From a phage, in the NCBI GenBank assembly GCA_026066175.1, contig GCA_026066175.1_4721.1: a stretch of 64,000 nt of DNA, one strand, 5' to 3'. Numbering within the stretch: position 1 is the stretch's first letter; every line of letters begins with the position of its first letter. The position numbers and the translations under genes were made by a program. Shown here piece by piece: positions 6,481-28,917 of the stretch. The notes under the pieces were generated by a model, which worked only from the letters and a program-made list of their open reading frames with translations, made no database searches and was not told the DNA's origin.

Positions 6481-6960
6481 TTAGCCTTTCAGCAGCTCAG
6501 CTGCATATGCACTGATGTTATCGCGAATATGCTTAACCTGAGTTGTTGGGAAGGATTTCTTATACGCGGTAGTCAGACGTCCGTAAACCTGTTTCTTCTC
6601 GTTAGAGCCGAAACCAACTTCAGCGCTACGTTGAACGGTTGCTGATACAACGTCTTTACCCAGCGGCAGCGTAACAGAAACAACGTCAACCTGCTTGTTG
6701 TCTGCCATGAACTGCGCACCAACGCGACCCACTGCCAGGCCATGAGCCAGACCGATGTCTGTTGTCAGTTTCTGTGCTTTTTCCAGGATTTCTTTTTCTT
6801 CTGGTGTTACCAGCGTACCAATGAAATCACTGCCCAGCTTCTGGCTACCTGATTCGTCCAGTTTGAGACCAGCAGCGATTTTATCAGAAAGAGCCTGAAC
6901 TTCCGGACGTACGTTAGAAGTGGTTTCAGTCGCTACGGTGGTTTCTACTGCTTCAGACAT
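6481..6960 (-). CDS. hypothetical protein
   Basis: ORF track 6481..6993 trimmed to ATG (MSEAVETT...) with GGAG SD; lies ~120 nt downstream of a TATATTAC-type motif on its strand. Confidence 0.65.
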   Translation of the reverse strand: MSEAVETTVATETTSNVRPEVQALSDKIAAGLKLDESGSQKLGSDFIGTLVTPEEKEILEKAQKLTTDIGLAHGLAVGRVGAQFMADNKQVDVVSVTLPLGKDVVSATVQRSAEVGFGSNEKKQVYGRLTTAYKKSFPTTQVKHIRDNISAYAAELLKG

Positions 6961-7080
6961 GTTAGTACTCCAATTAGTTTTTCGATCGATCAAAAGGATA
7001 AAATCAGAAGATTCTTTTCTTCATAGGGAAAACACAAGTCGGTTAAGGTTTACTTCTCAAACTCCTTGCGTTCTATCAGT

Positions 7081-7095
7081 TAGGTAATATAGACC
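7081..7095 (-). promoter_or_regulatory. candidate phage early promoter motif (GGTCTATATTACCTA on the transcribed strand)
   Basis: Plus-strand TAGGTAATATAGACC; one of five copies of GTAATATAG(C/T)C, all placed so that TATATTAC reads toward a downstream minus-strand gene start. Confidence 0.45.
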
Positions 7096-8987: not shown

Positions 8988-9020
8988 AACCCCTTAATAA
9001 GCAACTAAATGAAAACACGA

Positions 9021-12278: not shown

Positions 12279-13409
12279 TTATTTGGCTTCATTAAAATAA
12301 ATATCAACGGCACGTTCCGTTGCGTAGAGAAGACCCAGATTCACGGTCCCTACCACTTCCGGTGAACCGATGATACGGTTAGCGATACTGGTGCCACTGA
12401 AGATAGCATCAAGGGTGTGCCCGTCTTCGGTTTTGTTCACACCATGACCCACGGAAGAGACAACGGATTTCGCCTGTGCGGCGAAGGTACCTTTATCCCC
12501 CATTCCCGCACCAAGGTCGTAACGCATGAAAATACGGATCGCGATCTGGTTCTCACCTAACGGATTACCGTCTATTCTCACGTTACTGTTATTGATGCGT
12601 CCCGTTGTTGCTTCGTTGAGTTTCAGTTCCTTAACACGTTTAGCTCGCGCCTTATCAGCGTCACCCACAAGTGCTGCCATGGTTTCGCTCATGTCTTCAA
12701 TCTGAGCGCGGTACAACACATCGATCTGTACGACTTCACCATGCACGTCAGCGCGTGGGTTATACTGACTCATACGGCGTAACGCTTCAACCGCTTCCTG
12801 ACTTTCATCGCTCAGATCGGTTGCAATAGGTTCTTCCAGTGTTGCCAGGATCGTCCGAGGTTCAACATGATCGCCGATTTTCACCAAACCACGAATGTTG
12901 AGATGAGCGTCAACAATGAGCGTACGGCTCTTAATCGATGGGGTTACGAGACGATCGGCAAGATTGTCGAAGATATACGAACTGTCCTCGTGCGTTTCTG
13001 GAATATCCAGAATACCAACCAGAGACAACACGCCTGCGCGCCAAACAACCTGACCTGGGTTCCACCAATCCCGTTTAAAATAAAGACGATGGAAAACCAC
13101 TACATCCTGGTCCTTAACGCGATCCCCGACTTTATAATCGGTAATGAGATCGTGAGGATAATACTTACCTGGTCCTTTCCCGATTATCGTACCGAGTTGG
13201 AAAACCTCTTCCCCTAATTCTGGATCGTCGTATTGTATCGTAAGCGCTGTTTTGGTGACCTTCTTCACAACACCATCGCCTTGAGCAGCTGCTGCGAAGA
13301 GTTTACCAACACGATGCGCGATAACAGTCTCGCCACCAGTGCGCCATGGTTGTACGTCGTAACCTTCAGCGGCTATCATGCGGTTGTGTTGGATGCCTAT
13401 AAACACCAA
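12279..13409 (-). CDS. multisubunit RNA polymerase beta-like subunit, central fragment (possible downstream exon)
   Basis: By-eye alignment to bacterial RpoB: FIGIQHNRMIAA resembles the conserved ANRALMG segment; IRIFMRYDLGAGMGDKGTFAAQAKSVV resembles [26 protein letters not shown]. Track start is TTG with no SD and the frame is open for 8 codons upstream, consistent with an exon. Not database-verified. Confidence 0.5.
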   Translation of the reverse strand: MVFIGIQHNRMIAAEGYDVQPWRTGGETVIAHRVGKLFAAAAQGDGVVKKVTKTALTIQYDDPELGEEVFQLGTIIGKGPGKYYPHDLITDYKVGDRVKDQDVVVFHRLYFKRDWWNPGQVVWRAGVLSLVGILDIPETHEDSSYIFDNLADRLVTPSIKSRTLIVDAHLNIRGLVKIGDHVEPRTILATLEEPIATDLSDESQEAVEALRRMSQYNPRADVHGEVVQIDVLYRAQIEDMSETMAALVGDADKARAKRVKELKLNEATTGRINNSNVRIDGNPLGENQIAIRIFMRYDLGAGMGDKGTFAAQAKSVVSSVGHGVNKTEDGHTLDAIFSGTSIANRIIGSPEVVGTVNLGLLYATERAVDIYFNEAK

Positions 13410-13733
13410 TCTCTTGGGCGAATTTAGTTCTTATTCAGTATTAACATACCGTTACCGAAATAAGACTGAGATTAGATTGTTCAGATAAGGTCGTTAATCT
13501 TATCCCGGAGGTGATGATAGGCACATCACCTCCCGCTTACGTTCTCACGCAAGAGCAGACTATATCACATCTCGTTTCAAACGGTGCTTCTTCAGCACCT
13601 CAACGAGAGTTCACTTCTTCCCAGCGCATCCAGCGCCATTCTCTTATCCAAGGAGAATGCCTCACTCGAGGGGTACAGGGGGATGAATCCCTTAGTCGTT
13701 GAACCGTCACCCTAGAACGTTTCACAACGATCC

Positions 13734-14945
13734 TTAGGCGATTGGCTGCGGATTACCCTTGGCCTGCGGACCACGAACTTTTGTCGCGGTCAACTCTTCA
13801 TTTTTAAAGCCTGCTTCACGAGCAATACGTCTCGCTTCTCGCACGTCTAACGTTTCCGTTTCCGCTTTGGCTGAAGGCAGCATTGGGCGTCCCCGCAATT
13901 CAATGAATCTCGTCCATACGTCACCGTATAAACGGACCCGCTCTTTGTAAACAGAATAGTAGATATAACGTTTTCCGTCAGGAAATTTAGTCATTCCATC
14001 CGACTTTAAACGGTAATTGAGTAACGTAGTAGATATACCCATTTCTTCAGCGCAATCGACGGCCGAAAGGTACAACAGAGGTACATCATTTTCAGGAATG
14101 ACGACAATAGCACGTTTGTTGGTTGTCTTCTCCAACTCCAGGATACTATCTTCGACTTCTCGCCATGGCGTCTCATCAGTAACCCACTTAACTTGATAAC
14201 AACCATTAACGACAGGTTGGTTCTTGTCGTTAACGTACATCGACGCAGTGGATAACTTAACACCAATGTGATTCGCGAATTCAGTCAATGATTCGAAAAG
14301 ATGAATCTCTTTTGTTATCGTTGACCTTGCAATCACACCCTTACTTCCCGTATCCGTCAACGTTGCTAACTCGTATTTGGTGGGAATACGCCATGGTTCA
14401 TCGCCGTAATCTTTGCGGTACTGCTTACGTTCAGGAAACGCTCGCTGTTTGCCTCTATAGACACGATGATGAATGAAGTCGATATTCACACCAAGATCGC
14501 GTGCCGCTTCCGTCATGGATGGATATCTGGTTACAACACCGGTATCAACATCACGAACCTGAATAGGTTTACCGTAGGCAGCAATTGAACGTTTACGCAT
14601 GTTCATAATGCGAGCATGCTGATTGTTCTCTTTCTGCGTAACCCATTCAAGATTGTCATTCTCGGCGTTACCGTCGGGATCAAGGTAGTTATTAAGTCTG
14701 TTGCCGTCCTTGTGGTTCACATGGAGCAAATGCGCATCATCGATGTTACGGAACGTTAACATTAGAAGCCTGTGCATGGAACGGTAAACCAATGTTCCAT
14801 CGTGACCTCGAAACGAATAACGATAATACCCAGCAATGATGGTGGGCAAATATTCAAACTTCGATTCCTTGTTACGCAATGTTCCATCTATGGATATCTC
14901 CAGGAACGGGAATTCCGGTACGGTCTTAAATACCTTCTCACTCAT
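13734..14945 (-). CDS. HNH homing endonuclease with NUMOD-like DNA-binding repeats
   Basis: HVNHKDGNRLNN...NLEWVTQKENNQHA HNH motif near the N-terminus; three helix-turn-helix-like repeats (TEAARDLGV, TEFANHIGV, VDCAEEMGI). AAGAGGAA SD before the ATG and a TATATTAC-type motif ~45 nt upstream. Confidence 0.8.
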   Translation of the reverse strand: MSEKVFKTVPEFPFLEISIDGTLRNKESKFEYLPTIIAGYYRYSFRGHDGTLVYRSMHRLLMLTFRNIDDAHLLHVNHKDGNRLNNYLDPDGNAENDNLEWVTQKENNQHARIMNMRKRSIAAYGKPIQVRDVDTGVVTRYPSMTEAARDLGVNIDFIHHRVYRGKQRAFPERKQYRKDYGDEPWRIPTKYELATLTDTGSKGVIARSTITKEIHLFESLTEFANHIGVKLSTASMYVNDKNQPVVNGCYQVKWVTDETPWREVEDSILELEKTTNKRAIVVIPENDVPLLYLSAVDCAEEMGISTTLLNYRLKSDGMTKFPDGKRYIYYSVYKERVRLYGDVWTRFIELRGRPMLPSAKAETETLDVREARRIAREAGFKNEELTATKVRGPQAKGNPQPIA

Positions 14946-14985
14946 TGACTATATTCCTCTTGTGCAGTGAAACTAACTACACTTT

Positions 14986-14997
14986 CGTAATATAGCC
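14986..14997 (-). promoter_or_regulatory. candidate early promoter motif upstream of the HNH gene (GGCTATATTACG on the transcribed strand)
   Basis: Plus-strand CGTAATATAGCC in the 75-nt gap between the beta-like ORF stop and the HNH start. Confidence 0.4.
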
Positions 14998-15020
14998 TTA
15001 ATTCTGTTTACATTGAAGCC

Positions 15021-18000
15021 TTAATCATCTCTATCAGCAGCAGGTACTGCAAGTGCTGATGTACTCATTATTGACGAGCTACCATCCGTTTTCTCGTCGT
15101 AGGGTTTCGTTTCACCGTATACAGACACAATGTTTGCGTTAGGTGCGAGGTAAGCAGAAATACCTACGTCCCCACTATCCTTCGTACCTTCGGATACAAC
15201 ACCAATGTCCGACTTGTCGTACTCACGATCGCGTGCGCGTCGAAGCGATGTTTTCGAACGACCCCCGATACCGGTCATCGTTGCTTCTTCACCCTGCTTG
15301 ATATCCAGCATCGGGTTGGTTTCATCGATGACGATAGAAGCACTGTCGTCAAGGATTTGGTTCCAAACGCTCACCGGACTGATTGAGATCTTCTGTCGGT
15401 TGCCTTGGCTGCTGTTCTCGTTTTGACGAATAGCACCAACCAGATCCTTATACACCAACTCAGCGAACTTATCGTACGTTTTGAAGCGCTGGTAGTTCAC
15501 GTCGTTCGTGTTAGGTGCCCAATCGTCCAGAAGCAGTTCAACCGCACGTAATAACAACATGGCGAAATCAGTCGGTTCGCCCATGTTCTGTAATAACGTA
15601 CGACTTACCGGGTCGACGAAAAGACGCTCCATGAGTTCAAGTTCGCGAAGATGACGAACCTTAAGACCTGCACCATCGACAACGTTAAAATAGATATCCC
15701 GATTGTCGAAAGCACCTCGAGCGTAACCAATGTAGTTACGGTATTCGTTGAATCCGCCTAACAACAATGTCGTCATTCGATCATCTTTACTGAAGATCAA
15801 ACTTTCATCGTCGAAGCTCACCGCGAATTCATCCGATGCTAATCCCATACGAGAACCACGAGGTACCGTACGGTAGTTCGCTTTAAGATGTTCTAATAAC
15901 GGTGTAAGACCACCTAAGTAACTTAACACAACACCAACCGGAATACGTACGCCCATGAACTCAAGGTCAGCGGCTTCGATGGGCATCTTCGCGGCATTGA
16001 TACCGAAGAAATCAGGGAACGTTCCAACCGGCGTTGGGGTTTGATTCGGTTCGTAAACGTATAACTGATTCTGACCATCCACCGCCAGGAATTCGCCGTT
16101 GGTGTTTTTGGCGAACGTTAAGAATCCACCCGCCAGCTGTTCGGTGAATAAATCTTCACCGATGTGTTCCGGCAACGTTTTGATATCGAGGCGTATGTCC
16201 CAATCCGCAAATTGGATTTGGGTGTAGTTACGTGCAAGCACCGCGAAGTAATACGGAACTTTGACAGACGGATCAAAGACGTTACCACGTTTTAAGGTGG
16301 TTAAGGGCGAGGTTTTATCGTAATACATCGCTGTGAGTTGACGTGTTAACCAACGACCAGCATTATTAACCACGCGTTCTGAACGCTTAACGAACACCTT
16401 ACCGTAGGCGGTACTCAACGCAACTTCGGATGACGATACCTTTCTGATTGGTTTATCGACACGTTGTTTACGCATTCGATATTTAATGCCGTTAACGACA
16501 TAAATGCCGTCCTTACGAACCTTCGGTAACATCACCGGGAACGTGGTCGGAACACCGCCTACCGGAGCCAGCTTGATCGTGATGACCTGGTAATCACCCA
16601 TCACGTCAACAACATCTTCAACTTTATATCCGGTAACAGGATAGCCCGCTTGCTGCACCGCCACAACGGCTGCTGCGATGTCCTTTTGCATGACATGTTC
16701 GACGTAGTGTTTATCCCATACGGCAAGCGTCGATTTGCACAAGCTCTTATCAACGATAACGTCCGCTTCCGGCATCACCTTCTCAGGTGCTAATTTCGCG
16801 GCTTTTGGTTTAACCTCAACGTATTCAGCAAGCGTGAGTCCAGAACCGTCAGGTGCTTCAATTTCATGAATCGCGTCAGCGTTACGCATCGCTGCTTTAT
16901 ATTGAACGCCGCTTAATTGACCAGCATCCGCGAGGTCGCTTGCACGTACCAGCACTGCATCGGATAACGACTGAATATATTCACCGTGCGTTTTCGGTAA
17001 CGTTGCCGCATCGAAGACATCAACTTTTTCTTCCGGCATGTCATCGTTGACAACCTCAAAGAGATCATCGGTGATGTCTTGATCTTCGTCCGGTTGAAAA
17101 TCGGGCTGAACTTCAACGCCAGGGACTTCACGAACATCTTCAAACGCACGTTCAACAACCGCGTTCCATGCTTCAGCGTCGTCATCTTCATCCGATCCTC
17201 CGATCAACTCGCTTTCCAGTTCATCGGGGTCAAGAACGGTATCAAGGTCCTCACCGTTAGGAAGCACGACATCACGTTCATCGTACTCCGCATCGGGACT
17301 GTCTGCGAGAATATCACGCTCTTGACGAAGAACCTGCTCCTCTTCTTGTTTCTGTTCTTCTTCATTGGCGCTCTGCGACCACAGACGGGTTACCGCCATC
17401 ATCCAACGACGCTGGAACGTTTCAAGCGTTGTCTTATCAAGTTCCTCGCCTTCCTTCGCTAAACCCGAACGCCATTCTTCCATTAAACCAAGATTCAGAG
17501 TAAAGAAATAGACGCCGTCCGTAAATACAACGTTAAGCTTATCCAGCGAAGCACGGTCCAATGATACCATCGTGCTGTTCTCACGATCGACACCTAACCA
17601 ACGGAAGAAGTCAAAGAACGACAGCTCCTCGGAGGTGGCAAAATTCATGAGGTTATTACGGGTTGGGGCTTGTTGTGTCGTACGCATCAACGATATCTTC
17701 GGTAACGTCGACGGGATACGGAATAACAAGAACTGCTGACGGTCGCTTTGTTGGGCGATCTCGTTTGCTTGCGTCCAAATCGTTTTACGCACGTTGAACC
17801 ATTCATCATACCAACGGGTCAGTGTCGGACGATAGATGTACATGTGGTTAAGATGCGCATAGTTAGCCACGATCTGGGCGTTGATGTTCTTCTCAACCTT
17901 GCTAAGATCGGTGACCAAACGAAAACGACGATGCGATGCACGGTAATCCAGTTTCGCACGCGGTAGCTGGAATCGCTGATCGCGTCGAGGTGCGCCTTGC

Positions 18001-18233: not shown

Positions 18234-19913
18234 TTAGGCTCCACGAGGTCCCGTTAAGTTGCGTAATAGGAACGCAACCGTATCGTAACCAATATCAATG
18301 TTGAATTTATTTTTACCGCTTACCCAGAAAGCACGCTTCTTGTGCGAGTTGGTAATTTCGTCGATGGCTTCCATGGAATAAAGAACGTTAACAGAGACCG
18401 TATCACCGTCGAAATCGGCCCCGAGCCCGGCGAGAAACACTTGGCCGACTTGGGTCGTTTCTACGAACGATGCTTTTAATGACCAATCTGGGTATTCCCA
18501 CGCCATATAACGATAGCCTTCCATCGGTTGCCAGCTATCGTCGAGTTCTATTCTCGGTTTTGTATTAACCGTCGTTCTCACATAGCAAGTTAACGGTATA
18601 ACTGACTGCATCCCGGATACCGGATAACGTGTAACCATCGCACCGAGTTTATTCCAAAGATGGTAACCACTCAGATAAATCAACTCGCAATAGGTAATTG
18701 GGTGAACATTCGCACCAGGTTTGTTAAGCATCTCTGGTGGTAATTCACTCATACCACGGAACAGCCGGAATGAGTTGTTGTTCACATAGACCAAACAGAG
18801 ATAGCGACCATTCACCATGATAGGTTCGTTACGTACACCAGGATCGCTTAGGGTGTTTAATAAACGTTCGATGCCGTCCCAGGTTGTAAAGTCATCGATG
18901 GTATCTGGGTCTAGCGTGACACGTTCACGTTCCATCGTTTCGGTATCGATAAGCTCAGCTTCAGTAACATCGCGAACAAAGATTTCTTGTAATATCCCTG
19001 TACGTAACGCATGTTGCGTTATCGGAAGGGCTGCTTTGCTCATCTGGTATAGGCCGAGCTGTACAGACGTACACGATGTTTGGTTTGGAGAGCCAAGAAC
19101 TTCGGTCGTTGGAATAACTGCTGAAATAACGTTACGGGTTGAGTTCCAAACACGACGTGAACCGAACTTACCTTGGAAGATCCCTTTCTTACCCTGGAAC
19201 ATATCCAACAGCAATGCGTAGATATCATTGAAGGTTCTTTGCAGGCTCCAGCGCTGTCCGTCGTAGACAGGATCGTTGTAGTCCTTTAACCCATCGGGAA
19301 CGGTATTGGAGATAGCAAGGAAACGACGATAAAGCTCCGTGATTTCTTGTTCGCTTTCATACCCGCCTTCTTTTACTTCTATTTCACGAAGACCAGCAGG
19401 TAACACCAATAAATGACGGGTCATCGCTTTGAACATGTTTTCTTCGACAACTTTAATACGCAGTTCTCGTTGCGCTGAACCTGTTGAAACGAACATGATC
19501 TCCGCAACGTGTTGTGCGAAGAAACCGTAGCCGGTTTGTCCCGTTAACGCATCAGCGGCAACGAAATCACGTTGTTCTGGATCCCATCGCGCATAAGCTT
19601 TACCGGACATGATATCGCCATAAAGGTGTTTCAATCGAATAAGGCGATCGTAAATGACCGGATGCAAGATTTCCACTTTACACTCGATGACCGCAAAGCG
19701 GCGATCACGATCTTCGCTTCCCGCGCTCCCAAAAATGGTGTACGAATAAAAACCATCGTCATGGAAATTACCCGTGCTCGGGTCGCGGATACTCATGCTG
19801 GTAATCTTAGGAAGGAAACGCAACTGCTGCTTATCAAGATGCAGTATACTGATATTGAACGGCTCTCTGACTTTAGCCATGGATGCACTCCTTAAATAAG
19901 GCGGCGGTATCAT
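18234..19913 (-). CDS. multisubunit RNA polymerase beta-prime-like subunit, N-terminal fragment (virion RNAP-like)
   Basis: Contains GADFDGDTVSV (universal beta-prime catalytic NADFDGD motif), GIFQGKFGSRRVWNSTRNVI (cf. RpoC [20 protein letters not shown]) and LVLPAGLRE (cf. VLPPDLRP). The ORF ends ~50 aa after DFDGD, as expected for the split beta-prime of phiKZ-like phage RNAPs. Confidence 0.8.
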   Translation of the reverse strand: MIPPPYLRSASMAKVREPFNISILHLDKQQLRFLPKITSMSIRDPSTGNFHDDGFYSYTIFGSAGSEDRDRRFAVIECKVEILHPVIYDRLIRLKHLYGDIMSGKAYARWDPEQRDFVAADALTGQTGYGFFAQHVAEIMFVSTGSAQRELRIKVVEENMFKAMTRHLLVLPAGLREIEVKEGGYESEQEITELYRRFLAISNTVPDGLKDYNDPVYDGQRWSLQRTFNDIYALLLDMFQGKKGIFQGKFGSRRVWNSTRNVISAVIPTTEVLGSPNQTSCTSVQLGLYQMSKAALPITQHALRTGILQEIFVRDVTEAELIDTETMERERVTLDPDTIDDFTTWDGIERLLNTLSDPGVRNEPIMVNGRYLCLVYVNNNSFRLFRGMSELPPEMLNKPGANVHPITYCELIYLSGYHLWNKLGAMVTRYPVSGMQSVIPLTCYVRTTVNTKPRIELDDSWQPMEGYRYMAWEYPDWSLKASFVETTQVGQVFLAGLGADFDGDTVSVNVLYSMEAIDEITNSHKKRAFWVSGKNKFNIDIGYDTVAFLLRNLTGPRGA

Positions 19914-20053
19914 CTGAACACATGAGAGACGTAATGGGTGAAGCCATCACCCATCGCTTCCCTGCTTGATGCGAGGAAGGTATTAAATTACGTACCTGTT
20001 CGACAGCATCGAACAGGCGATGTATGAAGCTATGCTTCAATTTGGAGGTATAC

Positions 20054-23000
20054 ATGGTAGATAAAACCCGTGTTGAGGGTGATGATAATTGGGATAACTG
20101 GGATGATGACTTCTCCCTGGATCTCGATTTTAACGAACCCAAAGACGATCGTAAACCGATAACACGCTTTGCGGTAGGCGCGGTTAAAGGTGCTGCTGAG
20201 GATCTTACTTCCTACGAAAGAATGAAGGAGATCGCCAGAAACGCATTACCTAAGGGTTATAGCGACGGTATGGATCTTATCGATTCCGCCGTCGGATCCA
20301 CGAAGGAACTATACAATGAAGCCGTTCGTGACATTCTTCCGAAGGTACAAAGCTCAAAACGGTTAGCCGCACAACTGACGAAAAAATACCGTGCGAGCAT
20401 GCCCGATTTCTCGAAGAAAATCATCGAGCGTTGGGAGCAGGAAGCCAAGGAAGAAGACGAACGTAAGCAGGCGGAAGCCGATCTCAAACAACGCATGGCG
20501 AATGCAGGTGATGAAGAAATCGCTCGCAAGGTCGCTGAAGCGTTAGGCGAAGCGGCTAACCAGAACGCGGATCAGTTTGCGGAACAACAAGCAAAAGAAA
20601 GTATCCGTGACGATATTGCTGATAAACGTTATAATGTCACCAACAAACAGATGAGCGCGATGCAGGAAGGCATCGCCAAGATGGTTGGTTTCAATAACGA
20701 ATTCGCCGCACGCTATATGCGTAAAAGCCTGGAACTGAAATACCGTTCTTTGGCGATACAACGCGCGAGTTTCGATCAGCATAAAAAGTTAGCCGAAGTC
20801 TATATCGGTTTATTACAGAACATCCAAAAGAACACAGCTTTACCGGATGCGGCTAAAGCAAAAATGTCGGAAGAATTTCGTCGTACGGCGTACCAACGTT
20901 TCTTTGGTAACGCATTGAATGCGATGAGTTCTTTCGAGAACCGTTTCTTTGCTGATGTTAAGAAAAACCTTGCAACCAATGCACTGGGTGCGTTAAAAGG
21001 TGTTGCGTCTGGTGCGCACGACGCCCTCTCTGGTTTAAACGAAGCACGTGACTCGATGTCCATGATGGACGGCATGGGGTCAGAAGGCGATATTAAGGAA
21101 ATGCAAGGGAAGATGTTGGGTCAGTTAATCGGCTCAACCGTTGCACCATGGATGGCTAATAAAGGCATGACGGCATTGCGGGATTTAGCAAAACGCCATC
21201 CTAACGCTAAATTCGCCAACGCGTTAAAAGCGGTCGATCAAGGCGGTGAAGCTGCCGCTTATACAACGCGTAACGTCGGGAAACTGCTGCAAGAAGATAT
21301 TCGTAAAAACGAATTCAACCTCAGCGATCCTTTCTACAAACAGTTCCTCCGTGGAGCTGGACGTTGGGCCTTCAATCTGGACGGCGGTCGTAACTTCCGT
21401 GTAATGAACGACACCGCAGAGACATTAGCCGAACAAACGTCTTTCGATGGTTTAACCTATCGTAGCATCAACGAGGTCATTCCTGGATTTCTTGCTCGGA
21501 TACTGAAAAGCACTGAAGGTATCCGTACCGGTGAAAGCGATCCTGATTACGAGGTCTATGATGGCATCAGTGGGCAATTCGTTGCTCAGCGTACCCGCGA
21601 GCAAGGCGTAACCGACACGCTCTTTAACAAACGCTCGTTCGGTTATTACGCCGGTCGTTTTAATGAAGTTATCTCGGTTATCGATCCTGATAAACAGCTG
21701 TCAGAAAAGGCAAGGAAAGCCTTGGCTAAACAGCTGGCACGCGACAGCGATGCGAACATGGCTTTCGATCCTGCTCGATATACCGACGAAAGTAACTTTG
21801 ATCGCAGCATCGATAGAGACGCCATTAAAGAACTTTCTGCGTATTTCAAAGATCGTTACGGTATTCGTGATGATGTTGATGATGAAGGTAACCGTCAGCA
21901 GGTTATTGAAAACCGTGGGCAGTACTACACGGAACGTAACCGCGCTGACCTGCGGTACGGTAATCTGAAATCATTACAGCCGGATATCCAACGCAACCTT
22001 AACCTTCTGAAGCGTACCGGTGATATTCAATACCTGGAACGTATCGGGATCGTAACAAGAAACAGCGATGGCAGTTATTCGGTTAATCACGATCGTTACT
22101 TCTCTGAAATCGATCGATACATCGACCGACCGGAATATGCTGACCGCGGCGATGTTAACACGCGACTCAGTGCCCAACAGACCAGGGCGTTAGCGTTAGG
22201 CTATCGTGATGACGTTGCATCAAACACTGACGTACAAAATCGTGCGTTACCAAACCTTGATCGAACAACGGTCGGGACGGTAAACATCGATGAGAACATC
22301 GGGTACGAGAAATGGTGGAACGACGCGGGTGTTATCACCACATCGCTTGAAGACCAAAATCGCGCATGGCAAGAACTCTATCTTGAAGCGCTTCAGGAAG
22401 CTTCACATCAGCGTGAAACAATGCTGGAACTTCTGAAAGCGATCTCAGAAAAAGAATGGGGTGGTAACGGCATTGGACTCCAGGGCGAACCTGGCGGGGA
22501 AGAAAGTGATGATCGCTCTATGTTAAGTCGGATCTCCGACTTAACACTGGGTAAAGCCGGTAGCTATGCCTGGAAAGGTGCGAAAGGGGCTACCAAGTTC
22601 GGATGGAAATGGGGTCGAAAAGCGGCAACATGGGGCGCGAAACGTACATGGGGAAGCTTCGTAAACTCAGCGCGTCGAATTATCAACTTCAACCGTTTTG
22701 TGTTTGGCGCATTATCTAAGGTCGATCAAGTTCCGTTTGACATTTACGTTAAAGGTGAAGATCGTCCACGTATCTTAGCTGCGAAACTTCGTCAAGGTCT
22801 TTATTTCGATGAAGCCACCGGCAAAGCCGTCAAACGGATGAAGGATATTAAAGGTCCGTTAGTTGATGCTGATGGCAATATCGTCATCAGCGCTGAAGAT
22901 ATCGAGAAGGGCTTGATTACGCGTGCTGGACGCGCCTTCGAAAACTCCGGTTTGAAAGCATGGGCACGTGAAGGTATTAACGGTATCACCACGGTCTTAA

Positions 23001-26000
23001 GTTTACCAAGACTTTTAAAGCGTGGTGCTACGGAGCTGTACAAGCATTTCGATAAAACACCTGATGTATACGTGGCCGGTGAATCCACCCCACGTTTGCT
23101 TTCTCTGGTGATGGCAGCTGGCGGTTATTTCCGTAAGTCCGATGGGAAAGTCATCAAGCATCTGGAAGACATCGACGGTGATGTGGTTGACGCACAAGGA
23201 AACGTCATCCTGACCCACGCTGATATGCAGAAAGGGTTGGTCGATAAATACGGTAAGAAGATACGTCGCCTGAAAGAAAAGCTGATCAACTTCGGTGTGA
23301 AAGCTTTCACCTTACCGTTAACCTTATTGCGTAAGACAAAAGACATCCTGAAGAATCTCCCCACGAAAGCCATGAACGGGTTGCGTCGTATGGGCCTGAA
23401 CTTCCGTTTACCGGAAGAGGTGCTTATCGGTACAACCGCAGGCATGGTGGATCGTCTTGACGCTATTTATCAGCTTCTTGATAAACGCATGCCGGGTGGA
23501 GATAAGGATTATCGTGATTGGAACGGTGACGGTGTCCGTGAAGGATCGCTTGAAGATCTGAAACGTAAACGCGCTGAGAAAGAAGGAGAAAAAGGAGAAG
23601 GTACAGGTAAAGGATCCGGGAAAGGAGAAGAGAAGGAGAAGAAAAAAGGAATTCTTGGGAGCCTTTTCGACATGCTTGGTGACACCGCACTTGGTAAACG
23701 TTTAATGGCGAGTCCGCTTGGAAAGATTCTGGGTGGCCTTGGATCCATTCTCAGTGGTGGTGCATCATTAACGGGGTTACTCGGGAAAGGTTTGCTTAAA
23801 GGCTCAGGCGCACTCCTCAGAGGGGGTTTAAGTGCTGCGGGTTGGTTAGGGCGCGGTGCTCTGATGGCGGGCGGTGCTGCGCTTAATGCGGTAGGAGGAT
23901 TATCCGGGCTTGGTGCTGCGCTTATCTCCCCGGTTGGGTTAGCGATTGCCGGTGGGGCATTAGCGGTATACGTAGGCTGGAAGATCTATCAGCATTATGC
24001 TGAGAAACCTGACCCGATGCAGAAGCTTCGTCTTATTGCATACGGTGCAAAAGGGGATGACAAGGACTTCAACAAGAAGTTATTACAAACTGAAACCTAC
24101 CTTACCGACCATGTGGTCATGACGGGAGATACCATCGGATTCAATCCAAAAGCGGATTCTGAAAAGATTCTTGAAATCTGGGAACTGTCATTGGAAGATA
24201 CCGACCGGATGAATGAATGGAAGCGCTGGTATCTGCATCGCTTTATCCCCGTTTTCGCTCGTGCGTATAAGCTCTGGAAAGAGCATATGCCGGACGAGAA
24301 GAAGTACATGGAGATGGACGACTACCCCAACGGTGAGAACAAGGTCAAATGGTCGGAAGCCTTCATCTGGCCATCGGACAGTCCAGACAGCCCGTACTAT
24401 GTTGAAGCTAACCCGTTAGGTTCGGCTGGCGCAACGTTATACATCGCAGGGCAAGATGTTAAAAAGCTCATGGAGAGCCAACTGGAAGTCATCAGGAAAG
24501 AATATCAAAACCAGATCAAGAAATACACGCACGATGAAGCGATTAAAGACTGGTCGAAGATGTCTGACGCTCAGCGTAAATCTGTTGCACCTAACGCGTT
24601 ACGTGGTCAGAAAGCCTCTTTACGTTTCAACGACAAACGTTATAACAGTGCGGGTGTTAAAGGTCGTCAGAAACTGGACGCTACCGCGGTTGTTGAAAGC
24701 GTGGATCGTCGCGGTAAGAAATGGATGGCCGGTGGGTATATTGATGAACTTACCAGTTTGCGTATCCGTGCGTATGGGTTAGAGGTTCCGCTGTTAAGCC
24801 AAATCAAGGTATTGATGGAACTGGAAGACGCGGTTGAACCTGGCGTTGTTGCTGAAGGTAAAGGCGTCAAATACGGCGGTAATCTCGCGGAGCTGTATAA
24901 GAAGTTCGCGTCTAAGTTCGGTCGGGATGTCAACGGCAAACAAGACCAGAACATCTGGTTCGCCTGGATGAACAACCGTTTCTTGCCGGTCTTCTTAACG
25001 TACTATCAGCAAGTTGGCGAGATGGGCGGACAAGGGCTGTTATCAGATGTTGTACAGAATCTGAAAGACAGCCAGCGTTGGGAAATCGGTGAGGCGTTGG
25101 TTGCTGCGCAATACAAGGATGAGAAGGGTGCGCTACAGCCGGTATGGTCGTGGAACAGTTGTGGTTTCTCTGGCACCAAAGCAAACATGTCCAGCAGTTC
25201 AACCAAGAGCCAACTCGATCTGTTAAAAGAATACGCAGATAAAGAGAAGGTTCGTGAGAAGAACGCTGAAGCATCGCAGGAGGATGAAGATAAATTATCG
25301 AAAATCCAAGAGCAGTTGATGAAGCAAGCGGGATATGAGAAGAAGGACGGTGTTTGGCAGAAGAAATCACGTATCACGGGTGGGATGAGCAACGCGGAGG
25401 CGAACTACAATCCGAACCGTAACGAGGTTGGCAGAAGTAGCTTTACTGCTTCAGCAACCTCCAGCGCAGGTTTGGGTAGTGGTGGACCGGATATCACCGG
25501 GTTACCGAACATGGGACTGAAGAAACCCGCATCAGGTCCTGGTCCAGAAGCGGGTCGTCGTGCGGCAATTAAATCAGCGGTGAAGCACGGTATTACCGAT
25601 CCGATGGAAATGGCGATGTTCTTATCGAACCTCGAACATGAATCCGGTAACTACAGGTATGTCCGCGAACTTAACTACACAAAACCCGAAAGTCTGAAGA
25701 AAGCGTTCAACCGGAAATTCAGGGATGAACAAGACGCTGCGCAGACCATCAGCATGGGTCCAGAGGCTGTATTCGAACGTGTTTATGGCATGCGTAAGGA
25801 CCTGGGAAATACCCAGAAAGGTGACGGAGCGAAATATCTGGGGCGTAGTTATATCCAGGTTACAGGCAAAGCCAACTACGCACGATTGTCGAAGATCCTG
25901 AATAAAGATCTGGTTAGCGATCCATCGTATTTGGAAACCCCAGAAGGTGCAGCCGAAGGGAGTGTTGCATGGTGGCTTAACAGGGGTAACGTATTACGTG

Positions 26001-26725
26001 ATCCTGCAAAGCGTGGCGATGTGCGCCAGGTTCGTTATCTGGTTAACGGAGGATATAATGGGCTACGCGATGTTGAGCAACGTTCAGCGTATTGGATTCA
26101 AGCTGCTAAAAGCGGCACGTTGAAGAAAATGATGGATGAGGTTGCGGGTGCAACCTCGGACGATCAAGCTGAAGGTCCGTCTACCGCCAGCCAAGTGAAG
26201 AACGAGGAGGCGCAAGAAACCAACAGCACGCCAACGTCAAGCAACGATCCGCAAGCACCGACGGCGACCACGACGCCTGAAGTCAAACCATCAGCGGCCT
26301 CCGGCACTGCACCCGCACCCGGAACGGCAACACCGACACCAGGAAGTTTCGATACCGCAAAAGCTGCTGCTGGACAACCAGCATCAACACCAGCACCTAG
26401 CGATTTACCGTCAAACCCTGGTGCAAATCGAGGAATTTCAGTTCCAAATACACCCGCGCAGGTTGCGCAGTCCGCAACACAAACATCGGCAGCAAGTGAA
26501 AACTTCTACGGTAGTGCAGGTGAGATTCTTCGTCAGCAGTTGACCGTGCAACAAAACATCGAGAAGAACACCGGTAAGACCAACGAACTTATCTCAGAAT
26601 TGATCCAGGCTGTTAAAGGGTCAACGATCGGTAAAGGTTCGACAGGATCTTCTCAACAACAGACGATGTCGCTACCTAATCGTCCGCAAGGGATCTCTCC
26701 AACACGGACAAGGTACGCGCAGTAG
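20054..26725 (+). CDS. giant virion-associated protein (~2220 aa) with C-terminal GH19-type muralytic (lysozyme/chitinase-like) domain
   Basis: ORF track 20024..26725 trimmed to ATG with GGAGG SD. Region ~25560-26060 encodes AMFLSNLEHESGNYRY...YLGRSYIQVTGKANY...VAWWLNRGN, matching GH19 endolysin signatures. Also has tandem ~108 aa internal repeats (~22738-23390), a KE-rich tract and a ~110 aa Gly-rich segment (~23650-23990). Architecture is analogous to the phiKZ giant tail protein with a C-terminal lytic domain. Confidence 0.75.
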   Translation: MVDKTRVEGDDNWDNWDDDFSLDLDFNEPKDDRKPITRFAVGAVKGAAEDLTSYERMKEIARNALPKGYSDGMDLIDSAVGSTKELYNEAVRDILPKVQSSKRLAAQLTKKYRASMPDFSKKIIERWEQEAKEEDERKQAEADLKQRMANAGDEEIARKVAEALGEAANQNADQFAEQQAKESIRDDIADKRYNVTNKQMSAMQEGIAKMVGFNNEFAARYMRKSLELKYRSLAIQRASFDQHKKLAEVYIGLLQNIQKNTALPDAAKAKMSEEFRRTAYQRFFGNALNAMSSFENRFFADVKKNLATNALGALKGVASGAHDALSGLNEARDSMSMMDGMGSEGDIKEMQGKMLGQLIGSTVAPWMANKGMTALRDLAKRHPNAKFANALKAVDQGGEAAAYTTRNVGKLLQEDIRKNEFNLSDPFYKQFLRGAGRWAFNLDGGRNFRVMNDTAETLAEQTSFDGLTYRSINEVIPGFLARILKSTEGIRTGESDPDYEVYDGISGQFVAQRTREQGVTDTLFNKRSFGYYAGRFNEVISVIDPDKQLSEKARKALAKQLARDSDANMAFDPARYTDESNFDRSIDRDAIKELSAYFKDRYGIRDDVDDEGNRQQVIENRGQYYTERNRADLRYGNLKSLQPDIQRNLNLLKRTGDIQYLERIGIVTRNSDGSYSVNHDRYFSEIDRYIDRPEYADRGDVNTRLSAQQTRALALGYRDDVASNTDVQNRALPNLDRTTVGTVNIDENIGYEKWWNDAGVITTSLEDQNRAWQELYLEALQEASHQRETMLELLKAISEKEWGGNGIGLQGEPGGEESDDRSMLSRISDLTLGKAGSYAWKGAKGATKFGWKWGRKAATWGAKRTWGSFVNSARRIINFNRFVFGALSKVDQVPFDIYVKGEDRPRILAAKLRQGLYFDEATGKAVKRMKDIKGPLVDADGNIVISAEDIEKGLITRAGRAFENSGLKAWAREGINGITTVLSLPRLLKRGATELYKHFDKTPDVYVAGESTPRLLSLVMAAGGYFRKSDGKVIKHLEDIDGDVVDAQGNVILTHADMQKGLVDKYGKKIRRLKEKLINFGVKAFTLPLTLLRKTKDILKNLPTKAMNGLRRMGLNFRLPEEVLIGTTAGMVDRLDAIYQLLDKRMPGGDKDYRDWNGDGVREGSLEDLKRKRAEKEGEKGEGTGKGSGKGEEKEKKKGILGSLFDMLGDTALGKRLMASPLGKILGGLGSILSGGASLTGLLGKGLLKGSGALLRGGLSAAGWLGRGALMAGGAALNAVGGLSGLGAALISPVGLAIAGGALAVYVGWKIYQHYAEKPDPMQKLRLIAYGAKGDDKDFNKKLLQTETYLTDHVVMTGDTIGFNPKADSEKILEIWELSLEDTDRMNEWKRWYLHRFIPVFARAYKLWKEHMPDEKKYMEMDDYPNGENKVKWSEAFIWPSDSPDSPYYVEANPLGSAGATLYIAGQDVKKLMESQLEVIRKEYQNQIKKYTHDEAIKDWSKMSDAQRKSVAPNALRGQKASLRFNDKRYNSAGVKGRQKLDATAVVESVDRRGKKWMAGGYIDELTSLRIRAYGLEVPLLSQIKVLMELEDAVEPGVVAEGKGVKYGGNLAELYKKFASKFGRDVNGKQDQNIWFAWMNNRFLPVFLTYYQQVGEMGGQGLLSDVVQNLKDSQRWEIGEALVAAQYKDEKGALQPVWSWNSCGFSGTKANMSSSSTKSQLDLLKEYADKEKVREKNAEASQEDEDKLSKIQEQLMKQAGYEKKDGVWQKKSRITGGMSNAEANYNPNRNEVGRSSFTASATSSAGLGSGGPDITGLPNMGLKKPASGPGPEAGRRAAIKSAVKHGITDPMEMAMFLSNLEHESGNYRYVRELNYTKPESLKKAFNRKFRDEQDAAQTISMGPEAVFERVYGMRKDLGNTQKGDGAKYLGRSYIQVTGKANYARLSKILNKDLVSDPSYLETPEGAAEGSVAWWLNRGNVLRDPAKRGDVRQVRYLVNGGYNGLRDVEQRSAYWIQAAKSGTLKKMMDEVAGATSDDQAEGPSTASQVKNEEAQETNSTPTSSNDPQAPTATTTPEVKPSAASGTAPAPGTATPTPGSFDTAKAAAGQPASTPAPSDLPSNPGANRGISVPNTPAQVAQSATQTSAASENFYGSAGEILRQQLTVQQNIEKNTGKTNELISELIQAVKGSTIGKGSTGSSQQQTMSLPNRPQGISPTRTRYAQ

Positions 26726-26775: not shown

Positions 26776-28917
26776 ATGGGTATTCTTGTTCAAAACGCCC
26801 TCATCACAAAACAAGCCTTTTTATTACCCGGTGACAGCAGCACGCTTAGTGCTGACATGATTAAAGCGAGACATACACCCTATTCCTACGATAACGTCGA
26901 TGATACAACACTGGGTGGGAACTGGGTACTTAACCCGCCACCGCAATATACGAAATTTGCTGATATCAAAGAACGACGGCGTGCAGTTATGCCTGGATCA
27001 ACAGGTATGGGACGTGGGTACAGTGAAAGCATCAACAGCTTTAAAGAAGTTGTTACATTACGATTCGGTAAACCACGTTTTACAGGTGCGAGTATCTTCT
27101 TTACTGATTTCTACGACGCCGATGTTGCGGTCACCGTGAAAACCGGTCGTGACCCAGGTATTCTTTATTACGCCGCCAAAGCGTATACCACCGTGCTTTC
27201 TTATCTCACACCGTTACCTTATATCTACATGCTGGGTCGTATCGGCCGATACTTCATGGGCAAACCAACCAGTCAGTACTACTATCAAGTACCGACCATG
27301 CATGTATACTGGTCCTCGTTCCAGACGTTGGTTAACCAAGCAGCAATAAACATGGGTATCGTTGCGGGGATGGGTAAGGACAAAGGGTATGTCGAGGAAG
27401 GCGGTACCGTACTCCACCAATTCTCGATTGGTGGTCAGGATGTTGAAGAATTCATCAACTACGCTTCTAAAACGCTCCCAGGCATTTATAAGAAAGGCGG
27501 TGGGATCGATATCTATCAAATTGCAACACGTCGCCAACGCATACAGAACGCATGGGTTCGACGTATTCAATCCATGATGGAGAACGATTACGCGTCTTAC
27601 GAGGAATTCTGGAACGATCTTGATAAACGACTCGATAGCGGAGCATTTCCATCGGACGTTACCGGCCGTACGCTAACACAGTACCTTGCTGATACACAGA
27701 AGTCTGCCGTTTACAGTGCTGCAGCAGGTGATAACAAACAGACGATGGACGACCTGTTATTCGGCAGGGCTTCCTACAGCAACAAAGATGCTGATGCTAA
27801 CTTCAATATCTCTGCTGCCACCTCCGACGGCGGTACGTCAGCACAAAGTCAGGGTACGACAGCTAACGTCGGTAATTCAACATCGGGGACAACGCAAGCT
27901 TCAACCGCAGCATCAACGGCTGGAGGTGCGAACGTACAGAGCAAAGGCATCGGGCAAACGAATGCGGCTGAAGAAGCGACGTTCCTTGATCTGATGGATG
28001 CCGAACTGGCCGATGGTGCTCAGTTTATCAGTTTTCGGGTCGATTCTGTAACCAGTGTAACCGAAACATTCTCAAACAGCGCTTCGGAAAGTTCAATCGC
28101 ACAAACGATGAACAGCAAAGCGCAGGCGAACATCGAACGACGTTTTACGTTGTCTGGCGGTCAAACCGGCTGGGCTATGCTGGACGCGGCGATAAAGGGT
28201 GTGTCGGATACCATCAACGGTGCTATTTCAGGAATGGGTTTGGATGGTATCTTTGGTGCCTTCATGGGTTCTGGCTTCGCAGACATTCCAAAGTTCTATT
28301 CTGGGTCATCGGTAAGCCTTCCACGTGCAGATCTGACAATGGAATTACGTTCCTGGAGTGGAGATCGTTGGTCGATCTTTACGAACCTCATGGTACCGCT
28401 TTTAGCGATCCTTGCAGGCGGTTTACCGCAGTCTACCGGTAAATCGTCTTACGGGATGCCATTCATGTGCGAGTGTTATATTCCTGGTAAGGTCCAGATT
28501 AAAATGGGTCTTATTGATAATATCACAGTTACACGCCATGTCGGGAACGTGCCGTCAACACGTGAACGCTTACCGTTAGGTATTGATGTCAGTTTCAGTG
28601 TGTATGACCTGTCGTCGATCGTTGCAATGCCGATCACCACCACAGCAGCATCATTAGCAAAATTGGATCCTCGTGGCTTCTTAAGTGATCTTCTTGCTGA
28701 TGATACGCCGCTGAACAACTATCTTGCTGTGTTATCGGCGTTGACGCTTACCGAACAGGTTTACATGATCCCAGATTTAAGTCGTCGTATGCATAAGACC
28801 ATGGCTGATATCGATAGTTTCTGGAGCAAAGGTAATTTTGCTAACTGGTTATCGGACACCATGCCTGGCAGGATAGCATCAGGGCTGTTATGGAAACGTA
28901 CCGAACGACCGTTCTGA
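26776..28917 (+). CDS. hypothetical protein (713 aa), probable virion protein by context
   Basis: Long ORF directly downstream of the giant virion protein gene; Ser/Thr/Ala-rich central region; no motif recognised. Confidence 0.6.
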   Translation: MGILVQNALITKQAFLLPGDSSTLSADMIKARHTPYSYDNVDDTTLGGNWVLNPPPQYTKFADIKERRRAVMPGSTGMGRGYSESINSFKEVVTLRFGKPRFTGASIFFTDFYDADVAVTVKTGRDPGILYYAAKAYTTVLSYLTPLPYIYMLGRIGRYFMGKPTSQYYYQVPTMHVYWSSFQTLVNQAAINMGIVAGMGKDKGYVEEGGTVLHQFSIGGQDVEEFINYASKTLPGIYKKGGGIDIYQIATRRQRIQNAWVRRIQSMMENDYASYEEFWNDLDKRLDSGAFPSDVTGRTLTQYLADTQKSAVYSAAAGDNKQTMDDLLFGRASYSNKDADANFNISAATSDGGTSAQSQGTTANVGNSTSGTTQASTAASTAGGANVQSKGIGQTNAAEEATFLDLMDAELADGAQFISFRVDSVTSVTETFSNSASESSIAQTMNSKAQANIERRFTLSGGQTGWAMLDAAIKGVSDTINGAISGMGLDGIFGAFMGSGFADIPKFYSGSSVSLPRADLTMELRSWSGDRWSIFTNLMVPLLAILAGGLPQSTGKSSYGMPFMCECYIPGKVQIKMGLIDNITVTRHVGNVPSTRERLPLGIDVSFSVYDLSSIVAMPITTTAASLAKLDPRGFLSDLLADDTPLNNYLAVLSALTLTEQVYMIPDLSRRMHKTMADIDSFWSKGNFANWLSDTMPGRIASGLLWKRTERPF

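Follow-up and report, generated by a model that had tools for sequence, protein, structure and literature searches.

A giant gene beside a tail-tube gene

Which part of the virion uses a protein of 2,223 aa that carries a lytic domain close to its C-terminus? The question is raised by a gene on the plus strand of the window, i.e. the whole 64,000 nt stretch of phage DNA analysed here (contig GCA_026066175.1_4721.1). The open reading frame runs from 20024 to 26725 and contains an ATG at 20054 with a GGAGG Shine-Dalgarno sequence 5' of it. From there 2,223 aa and a stop codon are read (20054..26725), in agreement with the ~2220 aa given in an earlier note on this DNA. BLASTP matched the product to 17 isolate homologs, including phiKZ gp181, EL gp183 and RAY gp162, and the N-terminal body of ~1,200 aa matched phrog_3201 with an E value of 2.5e-298 over aa 11-1172. 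Judged from these comparisons the gene is the ortholog of Goslar gp204, phiKZ gp181 and SPN3US gp239.

Gp204 of Escherichia coli phage Goslar (YP_009820915.1), annotated as 'tail fiber protein' or 'putative chitinase' (COG3179), is 87.6% identical at the aa level along 97% of its length and agrees in domain order, including GH19, and in its neighbours. In contrast, nt identity is only 81%, and the phage here is therefore different from Goslar. Divergence has its hot spots at aa 801-900 (55% identity) and aa 1101-1200 (74%), and the annotated start of gp204 lies 31 codons further upstream than the one used here. For gp181 of Pseudomonas phage phiKZ (2,237 aa) the BLASTP alignment covers aa 35-693 (E 9e-45) and aa 887-1731 (E 6e-34) with ~24-25% identity outside the lytic module. 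Size, synteny with the virion RNA polymerase (vRNAP) and gp182 genes and the distance of the lytic domain from the C-terminus are shared as well. SPN3US gp239 is alike by homology and synteny, both checked in this analysis, but is longer (2,372 aa), distant in sequence and seemingly equipped with an SLT-type module, as inferred from the related pSal-SNUABM-04 protein.

Downstream follows a plus strand gene of 713 aa (26776..28917), which is homologous to Goslar gp203 and phiKZ gp182 and shows 82% nt identity along gp203. According to the cryo-EM papers, Goslar gp203 belongs to the tail-tube initiator complex and phiKZ gp182 forms the baseplate spacer ring; the giant gene thus lies in a neighbourhood typical of a tape measure gene. 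Upstream, a gap of only 140 nt separates it from the divergently transcribed vRNAP beta-subunit gene (18234-19913, minus strand). Among the 18 other phages fetched, 17 keep the order of vRNAP beta genes (-), giant gene (+) and gp182-like gene (+). The exception is LAh10, where the upstream genes are present while the downstream genes lie on the opposite strand without a plus strand partner. Frameshifted tail chaperone genes of the G/GT type were not found beside the giant gene, the vRNAP beta gene being located upstream instead. Such adjacent chaperone genes are not universal among myophages.

Helical body, duplicated modules and hydrophobic block

The N-terminal body (aa 35-888, 20156..22717, plus strand like all parts of the gene) is predicted to be mainly alpha-helical and is the candidate ruler part. 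In the AF2 model very long helices (aa 35-500) are followed by an alpha/beta domain (aa ~500-700) and by further long helices (aa 693-888). Helices make up 80% of aa 1-500 and 73% of aa 1-890 and reach lengths of up to 87 residues, at a low mean pLDDT of 51.5. Confidence is higher in the alpha/beta domain (pLDDT 76-91 for aa 510-640). A search with the N-terminal model, at this overall pLDDT, returned no structural match. Within the family aa 1-700 is the most conserved region, matched by 1,612 cluster representatives (E <= 1e-3).

This architecture bears on the proposal made for phiKZ gp181 in 2007-2008, namely a central cell-puncturing device located at the tail tube tip as needle or spike. 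A review table lists gp181 as 'needle-like cell-puncturing device, putative trimer' (PMC5380687), the annotation of 201phi2-1 gp276 still reads 'putative cell-puncturing device', and the lysozyme-bearing spike T4 gp5 is a precedent. However, the N-terminal 1,189 aa are predicted as 65% helix and 5% strand with no beta-helix, and a hydrophobic block of 115 aa (see below) is atypical of a spike. Moreover the phiKZ atlas assigns the spike to gp164, the tip to gp163.1 and the hub to gp101, the Goslar atlas names gp13 and gp48, and the atlases account for all hub and inner baseplate density. The cryo-EM models have already largely refuted a puncturing device, and we regard it as very unlikely.

The body is followed by a tandemly duplicated module. 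Copy 1 (aa 891-989, 22724..23020) is a small beta-rich domain with an AF2 pLDDT of ~80; copy 2 (aa 1000-1096, 23051..23341) was recognised by self-alignment and AF2. Their BLOSUM62 local alignment scores 170 compared to 29 +/- 5 for shuffles, so the duplication that had been read from the sequence at ~22738-23390 is real and extends over 22724-23341. No tandem repeat exists at the DNA level in this region, which indicates an old duplication. The family consensus holds both copies, and since the module is matched twice by relatives the duplication is ancestral to the family.

A low-complexity tract rich in Lys, Glu and Gly, likewise anticipated as KE-rich, is read directly from the sequence at aa 1169-1198 (23558..23647) and contains short DNA repeats at 23576-23642. 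It leads into a Gly/Ala/Leu-rich hydrophobic block (aa 1199-1313, 23648..23992; Kyte-Doolittle >1.2 in a 19-aa window), a putative membrane-inserting segment. Over the 100 aa where they are most frequent (aa 1204-1303) Gly, Ala and Leu reach 67%, and runs without charged residues are found at aa 1225-1244 and aa 1268-1309. Of 18 isolate homologs 17 have an equivalent block at aa ~1200-1400, as do most metagenomic homologs. The earlier note had described this segment as resembling a glycine zipper. The composition holds, but a canonical zipper was rejected: GxxxG occurs three times in the 115 aa, below the 7.3 +/- 2.0 of shuffles of the same segment, and GxxxGxxxG not at all.

Another module, of ~190-210 aa, is duplicated in dispersed form behind the hydrophobic block; the first reading of the sequence had overlooked this duplication. 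Copy 1 (aa 1314-1503, 23993..24562) is a conserved family domain with the consensus LRxxQYG...WFxxRFxPV, and copy 2 (aa 1563-1773, 24740..25372) was identified by local alignment to it. The alignment of aa 1320-1406 with aa 1564-1652 scores 70 versus 33.5 +/- 5.8 (z 6.3), and in AF2 the secondary structure elements of both copies appear in identical order.

The lytic domain belongs to the lysin branch of GH19

The GH19 signatures noticed earlier in the C-terminal region (HESGN, GRSYIQVTGKANY and VAWWLNRGN) are all present and fall into a domain spanning aa 1824-2033 (25523..26152). By comparison with known lysins it is assigned to the peptidoglycan-lysin branch of GH19, is predicted to be muralytic, and has both the alpha-rich, lysozyme-like fold and the catalytic dyad confirmed. 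The predicted catalytic Glu1863 in the H-E-S motif (codon 25640..25642) corresponds in alignment to 4ok7 E64 (construct numbering) and PaGH19Lys E51. The predicted Glu1872 (25667..25669), nine residues further, aligns with 4ok7 E73, and the spacing equals that of E51/E60 in PaGH19Lys, where the exchange E60Q abolished activity at 1 nM. Both residues are invariant among 22 GH19-bearing family members.

The gathering threshold of Pfam PF00182, a model resting mainly on chitinases, was not reached (13.5-17.7 bits where 25.5 are required), and the match was confined to the GRxxIQ(L/V)TG core. The orthologous GH19 domains of RAY, phiKT1019, BUCTxx100, EL and others exceed it. Structures have been solved for several GH19 lysins, i.e. 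the SPN1S endolysin (4OK7), PaGH19Lys (9EOI), KTN6 gp46 (8P8E), TseP (8XCL) and 7R6S. These are soluble endolysins of ~180-340 aa or a T6SS effector, whereas here the domain is embedded in a giant protein of 2,223 aa.

Names in the databases point in other directions. RefSeq and PHROGs call the family 'tail fiber protein' (phrog_3201, many records), and several GenBank records read 'endolysin' or 'chitinase', as if the protein were a tail fiber or served host lysis. A separate endolysin with GH108 and PG_binding_3 domains is indeed encoded at 62257-62892 on the minus strand, as the earlier note had stated, and the lytic domain of phiKZ gp181 is active on peptidoglycan and a documented virion-associated lysin (review PMC5380687). 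Both argue for an entry lysin over a lysis endolysin, in line with the preference expressed in that note, and we give the fiber and endolysin readings almost no credence.

The domain is followed by the linker already noticed, rich in Pro, Thr, Ala and Ser (aa 2034-2140, 26153..26473; A19 P17 T16 S14 in 107 aa) and probably disordered. One Goslar virion peptide falls in the linker region C-terminal to GH19 (Basu et al. 2026 preprint). A short amphipathic helix (aa 2158-2187, 26525..26614) and a Gly/Ser-rich end with basic residues complete the protein. This layout of linker, helix and basic end is common to GH19 and SLT members, a similarity without statistical support.

The lytic slot is fixed in position and varied in content

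The lytic domain was also compared across relatives, as had been proposed. GH19 is present in 9 of 18 isolates and in 30 of 169 family members and is hence a common variant. Depending on the member, the slot is occupied by SLT, GH19, M23, VanY, GH73 or Phage_lysozyme2. Its position is constant, always ~200 aa from the C-terminus: among 126 representatives the lytic domain has its median start at aa 1847-1874, with a median of 195-201 aa remaining behind it.

Alignments to GH19-bearing relatives continue across the lytic domain, whereas those to SLT-bearing relatives end at aa ~1731-1820, directly ahead of it. At the equivalent position of phiKZ gp181 Pfam finds not GH19 but a lytic transglycosylase of the SLT/GH23 type (PF01464), and similarity stops just before this module. 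The domain swap relative to phiKZ that had been suspected is thus borne out, and the lytic module is interchangeable within the family.

Proposed role in the tail

That the protein is part of the virion, as predicted from the sequence, is supported by its homologs. The Goslar ortholog (88% identical) was found in purified virions with 34 peptides and an estimated 3.4-8 copies (Basu et al. 2026 preprint, Table S4), and mass spectrometry detected the homologs of 201phi2-1 and SPN3US in virions as well. By analogy the protein here would be a low-copy virion component, and it may be essential like phiKZ gp181, for which TnSeq shows essentiality. The literature on these homologs also supplies the tape measure label: SPN3US gp239 is named 'the tail tape measure protein' (PMC5694885), and phiKZ workers call gp181 'likely the tape measure'. 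We likewise consider a tail tape measure protein the probable product of 20054..26725.

The dimensions of the tail may be compatible with such a role. From published values, 46 tube rings of 37.7 A (the Goslar rise taken as that of phiKZ) add up to ~1,736 A or ~1,157 residues of extended helix, compared to 1,190 residues ahead of the hydrophobic block. Three copies would occupy ~14% of the 68 A lumen by the same kind of arithmetic. As the full 2,223 aa are about twice what is required to span the tube, any ruler function would involve no more than a part of the protein.

T5 pb2 and tape measure proteins of staphylococcal phages and mycobacteriophages likewise unite a long helical build with a hydrophobic segment and a muralytic module at the C-terminus, the combination predicted here. 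In contrast to those, the protein here belongs to a contractile-tailed jumbo phage, has about twice the tube-required length and possesses additional duplicated globular modules; sequence or profile similarity to them is not detectable. Tape measure families of Pfam gave no hit at E <= 1 and those of NCBIfam none at E <= 0.1. The review PMC5380687 counts T5 pb2 among the muralytic tail-tube proteins, and PMC8570332 cites a tape measure protein whose muramidase domain is active.

In both cryo-EM atlases other proteins account for spike, hub and tube initiators, and gp181 and gp204 are missing from the models, as would be expected if they lay in the lumen with mismatched symmetry. Neither virion atlas reports tube density for them, and the term 'tape measure' is absent from the Goslar and phiKZ structure papers. 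An ejection protein packaged in the head or associated with the neck, comparable to T7 gp16, would suit several of these observations. It would be no ruler but be stored elsewhere in the virion and ejected before the DNA, its lytic domain digesting peptidoglycan and its hydrophobic block building a trans-envelope conduit. Low copy number, lytic domain, hydrophobic block and absence from symmetric models fit it equally well; moreover the length is twice that needed for a ruler, known tape measure families show no similarity, and chimalliviruses inject many virion proteins. However, the gene lies in a tail and baseplate neighbourhood and directly precedes the spacer/tube-initiator gene in all but one of the other phages fetched (17 of 18). 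The homologs are labelled 'Tail protein' (Goslar), 'tail-associated endolysin' (phiKZ record) or, by the SPN3US and phiKZ workers, tape measure, and neither atlas names another candidate for this role. An ejection protein therefore appears unlikely.

Taken together, we favour with reasonable confidence a protein of the tail tape measure type, with a built-in entry lysin, in a nucleus-forming jumbo phage akin to Goslar (Chimalliviridae). The tail tube would contain a small number of copies, probably three or six, and their N-terminal ~1,190 residues with the predicted long helices would span it. The C-terminal end would lie near the baseplate hub, beside the ring made by the product of the adjacent gene. 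Upon sheath contraction the spike complex would be released and the giant protein expelled into the periplasm. There the GH19 domain, as a putative muramidase relying on Glu1863 and Glu1872, would locally cut the glycan strands of peptidoglycan. The hydrophobic block (aa 1199-1313) and the two following modules may insert into or act at the inner membrane and may thereby provide a route for DNA and co-injected proteins. Lumen location, expulsion at infection and membrane insertion are what we infer.

The main elements of the interpretation are already annotated or published, and the result is correct but largely ordinary. For the family, a lytic slot that is fixed in position and varied in content fits selection for 'any wall-degrading activity' at entry.

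The giant gene and its closest relative

The giant gene lies in an uninterrupted ORF (20024-26725, + strand) and starts at an ATG at 20054 with a GGAGG upstream at proper spacing. The product of 2,223 aa bears out the length of ~2220 aa proposed in an earlier note on this DNA. GC content of the region is unremarkable (47-50%). At the DNA level only Escherichia phage Goslar matches the gene (81% identity over 96% of its length), protein identity to Goslar gp204 is 87.6%, and the flanks are collinear with Goslar. Based on these three observations the window phage is, by sequence, a member of the Chimalliviridae close to Goslar. A search of the assembly index for the exact protein gave no record, and no match to the gene was found in complete E. 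coli genomes.

Identity to gp204 amounts to 88-97% in most windows of 100 aa and to 78% at aa 701-800 and aa 1801-1900. It drops to 55% at aa 801-900 (~22450-22750) and to 74% at aa 1101-1200 (~23350-23650), and blastn loses the alignment to Goslar at 22459-22631. These local peaks of divergence lie beside the tandem modules and the KE-rich tract described below. In RefSeq, gp204 begins 31 codons before the position that corresponds to 20054 (BLASTP alignment q1 = s32; Goslar locus 8908-9000), while the window ORF is extendable upstream by 10 codons only (20024-20053). Possibly the annotated start in Goslar lies too far 5'.

Upstream of the giant gene, the virion-RNA-polymerase beta gene contains ~1.6 kb of inserted DNA compared to Goslar (13409-15037, minus strand; Goslar locus 5244-7329). 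The insertion includes a group I intron (13536-13959, minus; Rfam RF00028, 51.4 bits) and an ORF of 403 aa (13734-14945, minus) that matches NUMOD1, the I-TevI DNA-binding domain and, weakly, HNH_3, and is therefore predicted to encode a homing endonuclease. Goslar has an intron with gp206 (phiKZ ORF179-like) at another site, absent from the window; mobile introns thus occupy different positions of the virion-RNA-polymerase genes in these two close relatives. No tRNA genes were found in the window.

Internal anatomy of the giant protein

A tandemly duplicated module, noticed earlier from the sequence, is well supported: aa 891-989 and aa 1000-1096 align with a local score of 170 versus 29 ± 5 for shuffled sequences. 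Tandem Repeats Finder detects no repeat at the DNA level here, hence the duplication is ancient. The low-complexity segments were likewise recovered, namely a Lys/Glu/Gly-rich tract (aa 1169-1198, the KE-rich tract), a Gly/Ala/Leu-rich block of 115 aa (aa 1199-1313) in which stretches 1225-1244 and 1268-1309 are free of charged residues, and a Pro/Thr/Ala/Ser-rich linker (aa 2034-2140). The proposed likeness of the block to a glycine zipper did not hold. GxxxG occurs three times versus 7.3 ± 2.0 times in shuffles and GxxxGxxxG is missing, so that the segment is a hydrophobic block without a canonical glycine zipper. Its location is conserved among 17 of 18 isolates and most metagenomic members of the family.

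Directly after the hydrophobic block we found a second duplication that the earlier note does not contain. A module of ~190-210 aa occurs twice (aa 1314-1503 and aa 1563-1773) with a sequence z-score of 6.3. In metagenomic homologs both copies match one and the same region, and in the AlphaFold model they share the order of secondary structure elements. These post-hydrophobic modules are found across >1,000 family clusters, and searches with the whole C-terminal model revealed no PDB fold match for them.

The GH19 domain and the separate endolysin

The C-terminal GH19 domain postulated from sequence motifs was recovered by profile searches. Pfam PF00182 stays below its cut-off of 25.5 bits on this domain (13.5-17.7 bits). 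The endolysin family phrog_181 matches it with an E-value of 1.5e-48 (PHROG), and phmmer comparison with the solved phage and bacterial GH19 lysins 7R6S, 9MS7, 9EOI, 9MS6 and 4OK7 gives E-values from 3e-22 to 3e-17. AlphaFold predicts aa 1824-2033 with a pLDDT >90. The catalytic glutamates E1863 and E1872 show the canonical nine-residue spacing and are equivalent to E64/E73 in the SPN1S construct and to E51/E60 in PaGH19Lys, a demonstrated muramidase that loses activity upon E60Q mutation. Neither glutamate varies among 22 members of the giant-protein family that bear GH19. On the basis of the lysin matches, the model and the invariant glutamates, the domain is predicted to be a lysin of peptidoglycan from the lysin branch of GH19 and not a chitinase.

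A separate GH108 endolysin had been placed at 62257-62892. The gene is real (GH108, E 6.5e-19; PG_binding_3, E 1.8e-18) but is located on the minus strand, the + strand reading having four stop codons. In the phiKZ atlas gp144, a lytic transglycosylase usually called endolysin, is structural and links the neck whiskers to the sheath. Finding a separate endolysin in a chimallivirus genome therefore does not by itself prove that only the other lysin is part of the virion.

The lytic domain occupies a cassette site

The N-terminal body of the giant protein defines a large family. Residues 1-1,170 match phrog_3201 (E 2.5e-298), and tblastn finds this part in 253 phage records across chimallivirus genera, which bear at least seven different product names. 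Word-indexed protein search performed poorly (12 matches without Goslar for an N-terminal query; for the C-terminal query none with the Pro/Thr/Ala tail and one after trimming), low-complexity words probably having saturated the candidate list. Exhaustive HMMER was used instead, by which 1,612 cluster representatives match aa 1-700 (E ≤ 1e-3), nearly all of them 2,000-2,500 aa in length.

The gene order is well conserved as well. In 17 of 18 further isolate loci the giant gene is located between divergent virion-RNA-polymerase beta-subunit genes and a gene for a protein of 630-770 aa homologous to phiKZ gp182 and Goslar gp203. Aeromonas phage LAh10 retains the upstream half of this arrangement only, with two downstream genes on the opposite strand. 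In the window, the ORF collinear with Goslar gp203 is 26776-28917 (+, 713 aa), for which no Pfam match was obtained. Goslar gp203 is part of a two-layer tail-tube initiator complex in the cryo-EM model, and phiKZ gp182 forms an essential 24-stranded beta-barrel 'spacer' ring.

A domain swap relative to phiKZ had been suggested for the lytic domain. Indeed, BLASTP alignments to relatives bearing an SLT domain stop at aa ~1731-1820, short of the lytic domain, while alignments to GH19 relatives continue through this domain. A Pfam scan of the C-terminal 800-1,150 aa of 18 proteins (the first 17 loci and the window protein; SPN3US is not among them) splits evenly into GH19 (window phage, Goslar, EL, RAY, N1M2, LAh10, phiKT1019, BUCTxx100, RisingSun) and SLT (phiKZ, 201phi2-1, pSal-SNUABM-04, RSF1, Eowyn, Moabite, SPLA10, Noxifer, KpLz-2_45). 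Local HMMs were applied to 169 members (151 near-full-length representatives and the 18 isolate proteins) and assign 114 to SLT, 30 to GH19, 10 to M23 and 15 to other content. Pfam on 24 representatives without a GH19 or SLT model match yielded M23 (9), VanY (2), GH73 glucosaminidase (1) and Phage_lysozyme2 (1). For the two major classes alike, the median module start lies at ~aa 1850-1875, leaving ~195-200 residues C-terminal to the module.

When module type is mapped on a rough neighbour-joining tree of the N-terminal body, a minimum of 26 changes is required (~52 with shuffled labels), and the GH19 members fall into 13 separate pure clades. As the tree is weak (sequences are ~25-30% identical), these values are to be read as many exchanges rather than as an exact number. 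Module classes, fixed position and exchange count together indicate that the swap is correct and general: the slot is a cassette site with GH19 as one common filling. Conservation of the extreme C-terminus between GH19 and SLT members is only an impression of common layout, since an HMM built on the final 110 aa of the GH19 group gives no significant match among SLT proteins except for a single weak domain match in Eowyn.

Role in the virion

Virion presence, copy number and essentiality, as well as the activity of the phiKZ lytic module, are taken from the literature. Virion mass spectrometry of Goslar detected gp204 as 'Tail protein' with 34 peptides and an estimated 3.4-8 copies. One peptide derives from the linker after GH19, thus some copies at least retain the C-terminal part. 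RefSeq lists gp204 as 'tail fiber protein'; its GenBank name is 'putative chitinase', with a COG3179 note. Tail fiber, chitinase and lysis endolysin, the names on most database records of the family, were rejected; a tail fiber or an endolysin is poorly supported and we give it hardly any credence.

A needle-like puncturing device has been listed for gp181 (table of PMC5380687; 201phi2-1 note), which would make the protein a central spike. This assignment is superseded by the 2026 atlases. The phiKZ atlas builds the central region from gp88, gp182, gp101, gp164, gp163.1 and gp174, the Goslar preprint from gp62, gp203, gp48 and gp13 with all hub and inner-baseplate density accounted for. Neither gp181 nor gp204 is modelled or mentioned in these two works, and the term 'tape measure' is absent from them too. 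We regard a spike, poorly supported as it is, as very improbable.

SPN3US gp239 was called 'the tail tape measure protein' (PMC5694885); SPN3US_0239 is a homolog of 2,372 aa with the same synteny. The N-terminal 890 aa of the giant protein are predicted to be 73% helical with helices of up to 87 residues, whereby only the secondary structure of this model was used because of its low pLDDT (51.5). About 1,190 residues precede the hydrophobic block, compared to ~1,157 residues of extended helix for 46 tube rings, a figure that assumes a Goslar rise equal to the 37.7 A of phiKZ and is arithmetic on published dimensions, no test. By the same kind of arithmetic three whole-protein copies would fill ~14% of the 68 A lumen. 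These features are consistent with a protein of tape-measure type. Tape-measure proteins with membrane-active and lytic parts are known from other phages. T5 pb2 is listed in PMC5380687 as a muralytic tail-tube protein.

The main rival is an ejection protein of the T7 gp16 type that does not act as a ruler. Several points count against a tape measure: the giant protein is about twice as long as a ruler requires, it shows no similarity to curated tape-measure families (Pfam, NCBIfam) and no match to NCBIfam as a whole, no frameshifted chaperone genes are found beside the giant gene, and Foldseek of the low-confidence N-terminal model gives no match (best E 0.77). We deem a non-ruler ejection protein unlikely. 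The giant gene probably encodes a giant tail protein, presumably the tape measure, with a GH19 entry lysin.

Proposed function and significance

Anatomy, homology, synteny, fold, catalytic residues and cassette behaviour follow directly from the analysis. We consider the following mechanism likely. A few copies would lie in the tail-tube lumen and be expelled upon sheath contraction, the GH19 domain would then open the peptidoglycan and the hydrophobic block would insert in the inner membrane, in the manner of other tape-measure proteins with membrane-active and lytic parts. The annotation as giant tail (probable tape-measure) protein with built-in GH19 entry lysin is settled. Specialists will not be surprised, since both the tape-measure and the lysin assignment have been published. 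The Goslar ortholog already carries an annotation of this domain, so the kind of protein is known. Modestly new are the quantification of the slot with its numerous exchanges, the identification of two conserved duplicated modules without structural match in whole-model searches, and the demonstration that 'tail fiber', 'chitinase' and 'endolysin' are misleading database names.

In a family of >1,600 sequence clusters, at least six unrelated wall-degrading enzyme families occupy the slot at a fixed distance of ~200 residues from the C-terminus. Its repeated refilling by unrelated families suggests that delivery of the enzyme is more important than the chemistry. Taken together, the members represent a natural catalogue of virion-adapted lysin modules with possible use in enzybiotic engineering.

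Speculatively, the hydrophobic block and the post-hydrophobic modules might do more than provide a general conduit for DNA: as a virion component they could remodel the host inner membrane at the injection site and seed the early phage infection (EPI) vesicle, in which chimalliviruses deposit their genome, the interchangeable lysin clearing the wall ahead of these membrane-remodelling parts. We rate this as improbable; neither gp181 nor gp204 is mentioned in the accessible EPI-vesicle and virion-structure literature. If true, EPI-vesicle biogenesis would have its missing phage factor in the giant 'tape measure'. Hydrophobic block and duplicated module are obvious candidates for the step at which chimalliviruses cross the inner membrane and form the EPI vesicle.
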